DNA of 25,490 bases from a bacterium (lineage in GTDB: Bacteria; Patescibacteriota; Patescibacteriia; UBA1558; S5-K13): assembly GCA_029555085.1 (NCBI GenBank), contig JAKPTO010000007.1, forward strand, positions 1-25,490. Direction: 5' to 3'. The notes under the pieces were generated by a model. That model saw only the letters and a program-made list of their open reading frames with translations. It had not been told where the DNA came from and ran no database searches. The first letter of the stretch is position 1; the number at the start of each line of letters is the position of its first letter. Made by a program: the position numbers and the translations under genes. This document shows, piece after piece, positions 1,962 to 5,114 of the stretch.

Positions 1962-2681
1962 CTAATCCCTAATTCCACATTTCTTAACATATTTTTTCAT
2001 GATCTTTTGAAAATCTTTTAATTTATTTATCGTAAATCCTAATTCTCCCGCAAGTGACTCATCGAGTAATTTTCCATTATCATGAAAATTTTGTAAATAA
2101 ACTAATTTTGCACCTTTTAACTCTTGAGCTAATTTTAAAATATCATCATCATTAAAAAATTTAGGCAAAATCGTTATTCTAAATTCATATTTTAATTTAG
2201 AATTAATGAGATAATCTTTGGTTTTTGAAATTTCTTTAAACATTGATTCTGGCACCTGAGTAATTGTTCCAAACAAATCAAAATGCGCCTTATAATCCAT
2301 TGCAATATAATCAACTAATTTTTCTTCAATTAAATTTTTTAGTAATTCAAAATTACTCCCATTTGTATCAAGTTTAACTTTATATTTCATTTTTTTAACT
2401 TTTTGTATAAATTCTTTTAATCCACTCTGTAGTAATGGCTCTCCTCCTGTTATACAAAGCGCTTCTATTTTATGTTTTCTAGATTTTAAAAAATTTAAAA
2501 CATCATTTTCTGTTATATTAAAAATCATCCCTTGATTAAATGGGATAAGTTCTGGATTATGACAATATCGACATCTAAAATTGCATCCTTGTGTGAATAA
2601 AATTGCTGAAATTTTCTTCGGATAATCAATTAGGGATGTTTTTTGTAATCCTGCAATTTGAAAATTATTTGATATTTGCAT
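1962..2681 (-). CDS. nrdG: Anaerobic ribonucleoside-triphosphate reductase activating protein (radical SAM)
   Basis: SLIDYP..LFTQGCNFRCRYCHNP (CxxxCxxC), ITGGEP and KLDTNGS motifs; lies downstream of nrdD. ATG at 2681 is preferred because the track start at 2705 falls inside a hairpin. Confidence 0.93.
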   Translation of the reverse strand: MQISNNFQIAGLQKTSLIDYPKKISAILFTQGCNFRCRYCHNPELIPFNQGMIFNITENDVLNFLKSRKHKIEALCITGGEPLLQSGLKEFIQKVKKMKYKVKLDTNGSNFELLKNLIEEKLVDYIAMDYKAHFDLFGTITQVPESMFKEISKTKDYLINSKLKYEFRITILPKFFNDDDILKLAQELKGAKLVYLQNFHDNGKLLDESLAGELGFTINKLKDFQKIMKKYVKKCGIRD

Positions 2682-2691
2682 ATAAAATGAT

Positions 2692-2726
2692 AATTCCCCC
2701 ATCAAGAATCAACTTGAGGGGGAATT
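2692..2726 (-). promoter_or_regulatory. Strong stem-loop between the glycyl-radical mini-gene and nrdG
   Basis: aattccccc(a)tcaag-aatcaa-cttgagggggaatt inverted repeat. Possible attenuator or mRNA-stabilising element. Confidence 0.6.
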
Positions 2727-2737
2727 CTGCAAAAATA

Positions 2738-2884
2738 CTAAATCTTACCGCATTTTCTTTCATTGAATTCTGCTTGCTTTCCGTCATTCCATTGAGAAAC
2801 GGGTCTTAAATAGCCAACAACCCTAGAATATACCTCACATTTCTGCCTTTTTGGAACCTCGTTGGAACTTTTGTTTTTGTCCAT
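2738..2884 (-). CDS. Stand-alone glycyl-radical domain of class III RNR (NrdD C-terminal peptide, 48 aa); not in the ORF track
   Basis: Manual translation: MDKNKSSNEVPKRQKCEVYSRVVGYLRPVSQWNDGKQAEFNERKCGKI*. It carries the NrdD C-terminal signature CEVYSRVVGYLRPVxxWNxGKQxEFxxR. Confidence 0.92.
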   Translation of the reverse strand: MDKNKSSNEVPKRQKCEVYSRVVGYLRPVSQWNDGKQAEFNERKCGKI

Positions 2885-2910
2885 ATATTTATAAATTAAT
2901 TCTTATATAT

Positions 2911-2938
2911 ATTATAACTCTTTGTTAATTTTTAGCAA
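2911..2938 (-). promoter_or_regulatory. Candidate sigma70 promoter for the glycyl-radical mini-gene and nrdG
   Basis: Minus strand TTGCTA-N16-TATAAT within the 67-nt gap after the nrdD stop. Confidence 0.55.
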
Positions 2939-2951
2939 AAAACAGTAAAAA

Positions 2952-5039
2952 TTAATAAAATGTCTTGTGTGGAGATGGTTCGGCTGCGTGATAACCAATT
3001 TCATTATCACAATAAGGACAGAAGTTGTGCTCCCCTGAAATATAACCATGCTTTGGACAAACAGAAAATGTTGGAGTAATGGAAAAATATGGAAGTTTGT
3101 AATTTTTTGAAACTTTTTTAACTAGCTTTTTGCAAATTTCTGGATCTTCAATTCTTTCTCCAATAAATAAATGAATTACAGTTCCTCCAGTGTATAATGC
3201 CTGTAATTCATCTTGTTTATCTAAAATCGTAAATATATCATCAGTATAGTTAACTGGCAAATGTGTTGAATTCGTATAAAATGCTGGTGCGCCTTTTTTA
3301 TAAGCCTCTTCATTTGCAACTATAATATCTGGAAAATTTTTCTTGTCCAATAATGCAAATCTGTGACTCGTTCCCTCTCCAGGAGTTGCTTCTAAATTAA
3401 ACATATCTCCTGTTTCTTCTTGATATTTTTGTAATTTTTCTCTCATAAAATACATCACCTCTACTGCAAATTTTCTTCCTTCTTCACTTCCTATGTCTTT
3501 TTTCATGAAATTAAGACACGCTTCATTCATTCCTAAAAGTCCTATTGTATTAAAATGATTTTTCCAATATTCACCAAATCTTTTGTATATATCTCTTAAA
3601 TAAAACTTTGAATAAGGATATAGTCCTCGCTCTGTAAGTTGTTCTAATATTTTTCTTTTTGTTTCAAGTGTATCTTTTGCAATATCCATTAACCTCTCTA
3701 ATTGTTTAAAAAAATCTTTTTTTGTTTTTGTGGTGTAACCAATTCTTGGCATATTTATTGTAACAACACCAATACTTCCAGTGAGAGGATTTGAGCCAAA
3801 AAGTCCACCACCACGACGACGCAATTCTCTATTATCAAGTCGTAATCTGCAACACATACTTCTTGCGTCATCCGGAGACATATCAGAGTTTACAAAATTT
3901 GCAAAATAGGGAATTCCATACTTTGCTGTCATTTCCCACAATTTTTTGTATTTTGGATTATCCCAATCAAAATCTTTTGTAATATTATAAGTTGGTATTG
4001 GAAATGAAAAAACTCGTCCATTTGCGTCTCCCTCCATCATTACCTCTGCAAATGCCTCGTTAAACATGTCCATTTCTTTTTGGTATTCCCCGTAAGTTTG
4101 TTTTTGTAATTCTCCGCCAATTATAACTGGCTCGTCTTTCATTATTTTAGGAACAGTTAAGTCCATTGTTATGTTTGTAAATGGATTTTGAAATCCTACT
4201 CTTGTTGGAACACTCATATTAAACATAAACTCCTGAATGCATTGCTTTACTTGTTTATAATCAAGCTTGTCATGTCTTATAAAAGGAGCCATGTATGTGT
4301 CAAAATTTGCAAATGCCTGCGCTCCATTTGCCTCTCCTTGAAGTGTATAGAAAAAATTAACAGTTTGACCAAGTGCTGTTCTTAGATGTTTTGCTGGTTT
4401 ACATGCTACTTTTCCTGGCACACCCTGAAAACCAACCATGAGTAAATCTTTTAAATCCCAGCCACAACAATAGACAGCAATTAAATCTAAATCATGAATA
4501 TGAAGTTCTCCTGATTTTTCTGCGTCACGAGCTGCCTTAGAATAAATTTTATTAAGCCAATAATTTTTTTGAACGGTTGAAGAAATATAACTATTTAATC
4601 CCTGAAGTGAAAAAGCCATGTTTGCATTTTCTCTTACTTGCCAATCAAGTTCACCTAAATAATTTGAGATTAACTCATCTGCGTCAATAATTGATTTTAT
4701 GTCTCTAATTCTATTATGTAAATCTCTATACAATATATATGATTTTGCTGTTTTTGCATGACCACACTCTATTAAAACTTTTTCTACGATATCCTGAATT
4801 TGTTCTACCTCTGGAATAATGAGGGAGCCGAATCTTTTATTTAATTCCTCTACAACTGCATCTGTAATTTCATTAGCGCGTTTTGAATCTCTACCACCAA
4901 CAGATTTCGCTGCTTTAAAAATTGCCCTATAAATATTATCTCTATTAAATTTAACTATTTTGCCAGATCTTTTTTTTACTTGTTTTATAAGCGAAACGAC
5001 TTTTTTCTTATGTACTTTTTTTTCTTTTACTGTTGTCAT
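2952..5039 (-). CDS. nrdD: Class III (anaerobic) ribonucleoside-triphosphate reductase catalytic subunit with ATP cone, lacking the glycyl-radical tail
   Basis: N-terminal ATP cone (VKKRSG..EQIQDIVEKVL..AKSYILYR), LHIHDLD, YCCGW, finger loop RSMCCRL, LEATPGE, YTNST, and zinc site CPKH..CPYC. No RVxGY motif before the stop. Confidence 0.95.
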   Translation of the reverse strand: MTTVKEKKVHKKKVVSLIKQVKKRSGKIVKFNRDNIYRAIFKAAKSVGGRDSKRANEITDAVVEELNKRFGSLIIPEVEQIQDIVEKVLIECGHAKTAKSYILYRDLHNRIRDIKSIIDADELISNYLGELDWQVRENANMAFSLQGLNSYISSTVQKNYWLNKIYSKAARDAEKSGELHIHDLDLIAVYCCGWDLKDLLMVGFQGVPGKVACKPAKHLRTALGQTVNFFYTLQGEANGAQAFANFDTYMAPFIRHDKLDYKQVKQCIQEFMFNMSVPTRVGFQNPFTNITMDLTVPKIMKDEPVIIGGELQKQTYGEYQKEMDMFNEAFAEVMMEGDANGRVFSFPIPTYNITKDFDWDNPKYKKLWEMTAKYGIPYFANFVNSDMSPDDARSMCCRLRLDNRELRRRGGGLFGSNPLTGSIGVVTINMPRIGYTTKTKKDFFKQLERLMDIAKDTLETKRKILEQLTERGLYPYSKFYLRDIYKRFGEYWKNHFNTIGLLGMNEACLNFMKKDIGSEEGRKFAVEVMYFMREKLQKYQEETGDMFNLEATPGEGTSHRFALLDKKNFPDIIVANEEAYKKGAPAFYTNSTHLPVNYTDDIFTILDKQDELQALYTGGTVIHLFIGERIEDPEICKKLVKKVSKNYKLPYFSITPTFSVCPKHGYISGEHNFCPYCDNEIGYHAAEPSPHKTFY

Positions 5040-5065
5040 GGTATTATTTTATATTTATTTAAAAA

Positions 5066-5081
5066 ACACCATATATTGTGT
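5066..5081. promoter_or_regulatory. NrdR box
   Basis: acaccatatattgtgt fits the acaCwAtATaTwGtgt consensus and lies 27 nt upstream of nrdD. Confidence 0.8.
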
Positions 5082-5098
5082 TTGTATTTATAATTATA

Positions 5099-5114
5099 CC
5101 ACAATAAGCTGTGT
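5099..5114. promoter_or_regulatory. Second, weaker NrdR box overlapping the nrdD promoter
   Basis: ccacaataagctgtgt, offset 33 nt from box 1. Overlaps the extended -10 TGGTATAAT (minus, 5093-5101). Confidence 0.55.

Follow-up and report, generated by a model that had tools for sequence, protein, structure and literature searches.

The locus encodes a class III ribonucleotide reductase in two separate reading frames

The window analysed here, a 25,490-nt stretch of contig JAKPTO010000007.1 (assembly GCA_029555085.1) from a bacterium of the phylum Patescibacteriota, carries on its minus strand the genes of an anaerobic, class III ribonucleotide reductase (RNR) whose glycyl-radical site is encoded separately from the catalytic chain. 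The nrdD-large gene (positions 2952..5039) encodes 695 amino acids with an ATP-cone, a class III RNR barrel and a Zn site. An AT-rich intergenic gap of 67 nt (2885-2951) separates it from an open reading frame (ORF; 2738..2884) that begins with ATG and encodes a 48-residue glycyl-radical peptide, the C-terminal module of NrdD, with the motif RVVGY. Directly downstream of the peptide gene lies nrdG (1962..2681), a radical-SAM activase of the NrdG2 type that scores 201.5 bits against TIGR02495 (cut-off 131.15). The probable nrdG start is the ATG at 2681, and the mechanical ORF begins with a TTG at 2705.

The NrdD-large chain matches positions 1-530 of the 562-position NRDD profile (PF13597; E 1.7e-186) and reaches 1049 bits against NCBIfam NF006126 (cut-off 548). 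Its cysteine loop (C396/C397, ...SMCCRLRLD...), which we take to be the site of the thiyl radical, is invariant across 68 split large chains. The Zn-site ligands are C661, H664, C674 and C677, with codons at about 3009-3059; in the same 68 chains, C661 is invariant and the other three are at least 90% conserved. The CPYC motif ends at residue 677 and is followed by 18 residues, so that the chain terminates in ...CPKHGYISGEHNFCPYCDNEIGYHAAEPSPHKTFY before the TAA stop codon. The glycyl-radical loop RVxGY does not occur on the NrdD-large chain.

The peptide has the sequence MDKNKSSNEVPKRQKCEVYSRVVGYLRPVSQWNDGKQAEFNERKCGKI, in which the motif glycine is Gly24 (codon at 2813-2815) and a cysteine, Cys16 (2837-2839), lies upstream of the loop. 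It matches NRDD profile positions 530-560 of 562 (E 1.6e-10), and the NRDD domain is divided between the two ORFs exactly at profile position 530. An alignment of 68 peptides shows no variation at residues R21, G24, N33, K36, E39 and R43. Pfam and NCBIfam contain no model dedicated to the peptide, and only NRDD/NrdD models match it. The peptide frame differs by +1 from that of nrdD-large, which excludes simple read-through. The preliminary description of this DNA had placed the nrdD stop 18 residues past the Zn site of a 695-residue chain without RVxGY, followed by a 67-nt AT-rich gap, a 48-residue ORF with its own ATG and a glycine loop, and nrdG; the ORF coordinates and profile matches bear out each of these points.

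The source genome spans 1.02 Mb and is 99.38% complete. No second NRDD domain and no class I/II RNR domain (PF02867) was found in it, and the split NrdD is the only RNR detected.

Near its C-terminus the peptide of the window has a single cysteine, Cys45. Peptides and fused C-termini elsewhere (L012, L048, L053, L057, L064, L068 and L071; L003, L025 and L040) often end in CxC or CxxC, as in ..CGC, ..CDCE and ..GCGCK, reminiscent of the redox-active tails of other RNR classes.

The split is widespread in the phylum and beyond

The distribution of the split was assessed in an even phylum sample of 401 genomes. NRDD matches were present in 116, and the locus was classified in 112, leaving out four genomes with weak or fragmentary matches (G184, G196, G332 and G403). 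Split NrdD alone was found in 70 genomes and fused NrdD alone in 39; one genome each had a fused NrdD with an extra radical module, one split and one fused paralogue, or an unresolved state. In G009 (L011), the locus is cut by a contig end. At the level of coded families, the split form alone occurs in 25 and the fused form alone in 24, and 4 are mixed or fall into other states. The 71 split genes all have an ATG-started peptide of 40-84 residues (median 53), a median gap of 27 nt and peptide frames 0, 1 and 2 in 19, 28 and 24 cases. The first ATG of each open segment was taken as the peptide start, and the gaps are therefore lower bounds and the peptide lengths upper bounds (L116 has a gap of -92). 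The synteny is conserved, with nrdG downstream of the peptide gene in 70 of the 71. In a hand cross-tabulation, no class I/II RNR match was found in 58 of 71 split-bearing and 19 of 39 fused-only genomes, a contrast on which no statistical claim is made because kin are not independent.

The preliminary description had suggested that similar small ORFs may exist in other genomes, and they prove to be numerous. Besides the 70 split-only genomes of the phylum, a protein collection holds 906 stand-alone homologues of 26-84 residues, many on contigs of hundreds of kilobases, from Parcubacteria, Azambacteria, Micrarchaeota and Aenigmarchaeota among others; they are labelled 'hypothetical protein' or partial NrdD. 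A peptide-profile scan of one genome per GTDB species yielded 80 loci, including 14 split operons within and outside the phylum. Split operons occur in Micrarchaeota, Nanobdellota, one further archaeon, Halanaerobiales, Bacillota, Thermotogae and Hippea; a Cryosericum locus (L181), whose upstream gene is lost at a contig end, is additional to the 14. In 5 of 5 checked genomes with these scan-found operons, the split NrdD is the only NrdD. Its spread into distant phyla and archaea suggests that the split does at least no harm and can be transferred as one unit.

Several loci depart from the usual arrangement. In L127 and L133 (Halanaerobiales, Bacillota) the order is nrdD-large, nrdG, peptide, with the peptide gene after the activase. 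L083 (G385) and L112 (G247) contain a second, adjacent nrdD paralogue with the loop RVVGK in place of RVVGY, and in G385 this paralogue adjoins a split nrdD that lacks the ATP-cone. The divergent NrdD of L073 (G370), whose relatives carry RRITGY, ends in ...FERLSCGC, and no glycine loop was found in the 6.2-kb locus. The nrdD frames of L113-L118, L121, L122 and others extend over 1004-1557 residues, and their NRDD match is broken into two or three segments. The pattern resembles inteins that recur near profile positions 157 and 260, in genes of either form.

Junction positions and split-specific signatures

Splits occur at more than one position in the chain. The commonest junction lies after the second CxxC, where the barrel keeps a tail of the form CxxC-D/E-x-E-(I/L)-G. 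In five loci of one coded family (f57; L054, L063, L075, L101 and L104), the second CxxC of the Zn site is itself divided: ...GEHYEC closes the barrel, and the peptide runs from ..KCGKK (..KCGKKTLVYSRVVGY) to a terminal HICGCG. In this lineage, both chains would have to contribute to any Zn site with four ligands. In a divergent group (L092-L096), the whole CPFCG pair is located on the peptide. On a barrel-only tree of 112 rows (FastTree), the distribution of split and fused genes needs 7 state changes, at least 5 of them forced by supported branches, whereas 3 changes suffice on a quick IQ-TREE tree (LG+G4) of 60 of those rows, which carries a long-branch warning. Twelve rows were left out of the trees: L109, which contains N; the intein-sized L113-L118, L121 and L122; and the fragments L119, L120 and L123. 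Given the discrepancy between the trees, we conclude only that three or more switches between split and fused forms took place, and assign them no direction.

The two halves of the junction carry sequence features that set split genes apart. Of 76 split peptides, 65 have the motif R[QTE]xC directly before EVYSRVVGY; the 46 fused genes all lack it. An acidic CxxC[DE]xE tail ends the barrel in 61 of the 76 split loci, and 60 loci combine both features. A cysteine occupies the position five residues before the loop arginine in 66 of the 76 peptides, compared with 28 of the 46 fused genes; in the remaining 10 peptides, the cysteine lies further upstream of this arginine.

A modelled complex places the peptide at the glycyl-radical domain position

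The NrdD-large chain and the peptide were modelled as a complex using a 68-row alignment for each. The complex scored an ipSAE of 0.84 (0.86, 0.84 and 0.84 in the individual runs), and the best of three controls scored 0.02. In the calibration, 58 of 80 solved complexes attained the mark, compared with 2 of 110 mismatched pairs. The partner pLDDT is 76-78, the interface comprises 136-141 confident contacts, and at least 80% of the contacts agree between runs. In the model, peptide residues 11-28, 31, 33-39 and 41-48 touch the large chain, on which the contacted residues include 657-663, 669-674, 677-678 and 681-683. Peptide residues 14-19 pair with large-chain residues 657-661 and 669-674, and Cys16 touches both Cys661 and Cys674. 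The in silico model confidently predicts docking of the peptide at the site that the glycyl-radical domain occupies in single-chain NrdD. Modelling of the pair, which the preliminary description had proposed as a check, gives a positive result, although solved NrdD structures could be remembered by the predictor.

Candidate regulatory elements around the split

The gap contains a promoter-like site on the minus strand (2911-2938), composed of TTGCTA (2938-2933), a 16-nt spacer and TATAAT (2916-2911). A block of about 30 nt that encloses this site is invariant in six genomes that share the NrdD lineage, whereas the flanking gap varies and synonymous sites are near saturation. Promoter-like sites in the region are not clearly enriched (31, compared with 21.4 +/- 5.0 in shuffled sequences), so the case for a promoter rests on the conservation of the block, which may serve as a promoter for the peptide gene and nrdG.

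An RNA hairpin is predicted on the minus strand at 2692..2727, between the peptide stop and the nrdG start (-23.1 kcal/mol, z -3.56). Eight of its 16 pairs show compensatory changes across the six genomes, and its G-rich 3' arm directly precedes the nrdG ATG. The hairpin could act as a terminator or as a translational gate for nrdG. One terminator-like site inside nrdD is probably a chance match.

Upstream of nrdD, an NrdR-box-like palindrome, ACACCATATATTGTGT (5066..5081, no strand assigned), lies 27-42 nt before the start codon. It is the sole match in the window to an NrdR-box consensus, with 1 mismatch, and the count alone is weak because 0.68 matches per window are expected by chance. The genome encodes an NrdR above the NCBIfam cut-off (G000:C51:20293-20733, L204). 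No NrdR-box-like site was found in the gap. The neighbouring genes are housekeeping genes for trigger factor, TsaD, ValRS, adenylosuccinate lyase and SMC.

Other genomes encode further autonomous NrdD-type radical modules

Separate from the split genes, longer NrdD-type modules occur in genomes that also have a full-length NrdD. In L029 (G117), L152, L169 and L199, an ORF of about 90-96 residues with a CxxC..CxxC ribbon and a glycine loop lies downstream of a full-length fused nrdD and ahead of nrdG. The extra loop is closest to the NrdD loop of its own genome in 3 of 3 pairs (29, 26 and 30 of 31 residues), the L169 pair having been left out of the comparison. A second type, found in Desulfobacterales/Thermodesulfobacteriota (L135, L139, L140, L144, L154, L164, L172 and L178), combines a Zn ribbon with an NrdD-type glycine loop and covers NRDD positions 511-562; the protein has about 112 residues in L172, and the open segments span 112-206 residues. 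No nrdD or nrdG was found within 3 kb of these eight modules, and full-length NrdD is encoded elsewhere in 5 of 5 checked genomes. This module family comprises 404 clusters in the protein collection, mostly labelled 'hypothetical protein'. It is these longer modules, not the peptide of the window, that match what defines a spare part, and the modules next to nrdD are candidate spare parts for a class III RNR.

Comparison with known systems

The encoded parts and their order match those of single-chain NrdD/NrdG systems (Prevotella copri, 8P23 and 9D3X; Thermotoga maritima, 4COI/4U3E; phage T4, 1H78), which share the ATP-cone, barrel, cysteine loop, Zn site, RVxGY loop and radical-SAM activase. 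The peptide of the window aligns to residues 616-645 of the 651-residue T. maritima NrdD. The window departs from the single-chain enzymes in that a separate polypeptide of 48 residues, started at a codon of its own, bears the glycine loop, the large chain closes with an acidic tail of 18 residues, and a basic R-x-x-C lead-in is present on the peptide.

Small stand-alone glycine-loop proteins are represented by Escherichia coli GrcA/YfiD and phage T4 Y06I, as described in PMC8683613 and PMC13450708. GrcA resembles the peptide of the window in the presumed activation by the cognate activase and the presumed action in trans with a loop-deficient barrel. GrcA differs in being a domain of the pyruvate formate-lyase (PFL) type, in reserve for a full-length enzyme that O2 has cleaved, whereas the peptide of the window is NrdD-type and much shorter. 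The peptide lacks homology to the PFL C-terminus (Gly_radical/GrcA family) and is matched only by NRDD/NrdD models. No full-length NrdD accompanies it, as the genome holds only the loop-less NrdD, and the peptide is therefore viewed as a constitutive subunit and not as a spare. A 2021 study (PMC8683613) and a 2026 review (PMC13450708) regard spare-part proteins as validated for PFL only and leave other glycyl radical enzymes undecided.

Divided RNRs are known from other classes. In the split class II enzyme NrdJa/NrdJb of Pseudomonas aeruginosa, the catalytic chain is likewise encoded by two genes with the C-terminal accessory part second, and in class I RNR, the radical on one polypeptide (beta) is likewise used by the barrel of another (alpha), as stated in PMC9669993. 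NrdJa/NrdJb differs in its dependence on B12 and in its second chain, whose IscU-like and Zn-finger domains serve re-reduction and not as a radical site. Class I RNR differs in using a ferritin-like metallo-subunit and long-range transfer, whereas in the window the radical residue itself would insert into the barrel. The nrdD of phage T4 (sunY) exemplifies genes interrupted by an intron or intein, while the window has no self-splicing element between the coding parts. No split NrdD or NrdD-type spare part was found in the full-text literature, and the description as new is provisional because subscription journals and supplements lay outside this search. On this comparison, the enzyme is a new, conserved and widespread two-chain form of a known class III RNR, and its chemistry is presumably the same.

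Interpretation and alternative explanations

The best reading of the locus, which we hold with good confidence, is an obligate two-chain (heteromeric) class III anaerobic RNR. In the proposed mechanism, the ATP-cone, the Zn site and the catalytic barrel, which contains the cysteine loop, would come from the 695-residue chain, and the glycyl-radical loop found at the C-terminus of single-chain NrdD would come from the 48-residue peptide. The peptide would be translated from its own ATG, possibly from a gap promoter shared with nrdG. It would bind the barrel at the canonical position of the glycyl-radical domain through strand pairing with large-chain residues 657-661 and 669-674, with its basic R-x-x-C segment against the acidic CxxC-D-x-E barrel tail and with Cys16 perhaps joining the Zn site. 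NrdG would take a hydrogen from Gly24, and the radical would move to the barrel cysteine loop, as in any NrdD. The combination of barrel, separate radical peptide and activase had been put forward in the preliminary description; its genes are real, under selection, widespread and the sole RNR of the genome, and the model docks the two chains.

Several points weigh against this reading. The peptide itself is a prediction from sequence and modelling. The high model score may reflect memory of the solved single-chain NrdD structures (8P23, 9D3X, 4COI and 1H78) and thus likeness instead of binding. A role of Cys16 at the Zn site is suggested by contacts listed for the model only, the large chain already has four candidate Zn ligands (C661, H664, C674 and C677), and the equivalent position is a cysteine in just 28 of the 46 fused genes. 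Dependence among kin makes the counts overstate the number of independent observations. The organism may salvage deoxynucleosides, and being the sole RNR does not, for this reason, prove that the enzyme is essential.

Model organisms encode NrdD in one gene, and the stop codon and altered frame in the window could at first sight reflect a private nonsense or frameshift lesion in a decaying nrdD, or an assembly error. Sampled words of positions 2600-5100 are all present in 18 DNA runs under 15 study codes (2016 to 2023; sludge, wastewater, soil and digester samples), all of which are flagged as possible sources of the window. Contigs from three of the runs (2016, 2020 and 2023), any one of which may be the source of the window, match the DNA from the nrdD stop across the gap and through the peptide ORF at every letter and contain no insertion or deletion there, a contig-level counterpart of the raw-read check proposed in the preliminary description. 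Each of the 6 genomes that share the NrdD lineage and have a complete locus keeps the split, and the proposed refutation by uniformly fused close relatives does not apply. A sister genus in the same family does have a fused NrdD, which falls in another NrdD clade on the barrel tree and is thus not the unsplit counterpart of the gene in the window. The peptide core is under strong purifying selection, with nonsynonymous differences (pN) of 0.012-0.046 against synonymous differences (pS) of 0.23-0.84 in 15 of 15 pairs from the six genomes. A lesion also fits poorly with the 70 of 112 phylum genomes that share the arrangement and with the role of the split NrdD as the sole RNR found. On the contigs, the relatives, the phylum census and pN/pS, a lesion or assembly error was rejected, and we give it practically no credence. 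Joining of the two ORFs into one chain by frameshifting, translational bypass or read-through is scarcely more probable. In the window, the nrdD stop and the peptide ATG each have a TAT codon in front of them, formally a take-off and landing pair, but close relatives lack the pair (their segments before the ATG read ...EKHM, ...ANIM and ...NNHM). Among the six genomes, the gap ranges from 65 to 88 nt, the peptide lies in frame 0, 1 or 2 and in-frame stops intervene, so no frameshift or bypass geometry is conserved. The peptide has its own ATG in 76 of 76 split loci, and a canonical Shine-Dalgarno site (AAGGAGG-type) precedes it in 26 of them, all from other lineages, compared with 14% of random windows. 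No Shine-Dalgarno site was found before the peptide of the window, which is uninformative because only 1 of the 16 window ORFs of at least 150 residues has such a motif, the leaders being A/T-rich. Frameshift, bypass and read-through were rejected on the unconserved frames, gap lengths and TAT pair; an intron, riboswitch or intein in the gap was likewise rejected, as it spans 67 nt and the region has no Rfam match, no intron and no intein domain. The one RNA run that shares words with the region (X19) gave contigs only on parts of nrdD-large (3409-3573, 3738-3956 and 4457-4853) and none over the gap, the peptide or nrdG, which says nothing either way on transcription of the peptide.

Two further explanations accept the two chains and concern the reason for the split. 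The split may be a neutral gene fission, in which a break-tolerant linker between the Zn site and the glycine loop was severed in small, fast-evolving genomes and the permanently associated halves were fixed by drift with no functional advantage. The variable length, frame and position of the junction, the unchanged domain content and the interleaving of fused and split genes on the barrel trees (3 changes with IQ-TREE, 60 rows; 7 with FastTree, 112 rows) favour this account. The signatures confined to split genes (R[QTE]xC, 65 of 76 against 0 of 46; acidic tail, 61 of 76) and the peptide-nrdG order held in 70 of 71 cases speak against it, as does the occurrence of the split in distant phyla and archaea, and we consider neutral fission a possible explanation that falls short of being the probable one. 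The other explanation is a variant of the two-chain reading with different dynamics and a different rationale for the split: the peptide would be an exchangeable cofactor that NrdG activates in free form, that docks reversibly and that is replaced after O2 cleavage at Gly24. For PFL, it is established that O2 cleaves the chain at the radical glycine and that GrcA/YfiD rescues the enzyme (PMC8683613 and PMC13450708). Exchange would also fit the rise or persistence of the split at three or more junction positions, the more frequent lack of class I/II RNR among split-bearing genomes, near-identical DNA in activated-sludge, wastewater, soil and digester runs, and the occurrence, in other genomes, of stand-alone NrdD-type radical domains alongside a full-length NrdD. 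Production of the peptide and the activase could be uncoupled from an NrdR-controlled barrel by the conserved promoter-like block in the gap. Against this, the large interface in the model (136-141 contacts) and the position of Cys16 next to the Zn-site cysteines would fit a stable subunit at least equally well, and the contrasts in habitat and sole RNR are confounded by relatedness. We hold an exchangeable cofactor to be possible but less likely than not.

Implications

By analogy with GrcA/YfiD and PFL, the economy of O2 damage proposed in the preliminary description would be a plausible rationale for the split. If the peptide is exchangeable, O2 exposure would cost a 5-kDa peptide instead of an 80-kDa enzyme. 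In its fullest form, the idea describes a free-standing replaceable radical module that NrdG activates off the enzyme, that shares the Zn site (Cys16, C661, C674 and C677) and that is swapped after O2 damage, a scheme we regard as rather unlikely. Were it true, split NrdD would be a repairable RNR, which would explain the persistence of NrdD-only bacteria and archaea where oxygen comes and goes, and the longer proteins with a Zn ribbon and a glycine loop (Paceibacterota, Moranbacteria and Desulfobacterales) would be the first non-PFL spare parts.

To our knowledge, every characterised glycyl radical enzyme has its radical glycine on the catalytic chain, and the only trans-acting radical domains we know of are the GrcA/YfiD spare parts of PFL. 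The anaerobic RNR of the window is naturally divided, with a radical site on a peptide of about 5 kDa, and the split is the form present in most NrdD-bearing genomes of the 401-genome Patescibacteria sample. The peptide would offer a natural minimal substrate for the study of activase access to the glycine and a system for testing the exchange of radical modules after oxygen damage. Because the radical loop is located on a separate small ORF, automatic annotation calls these NrdD proteins truncated or misses the peptide, a gap that is relevant to metabolic reconstructions of CPR (Candidate Phyla Radiation) and DPANN organisms.

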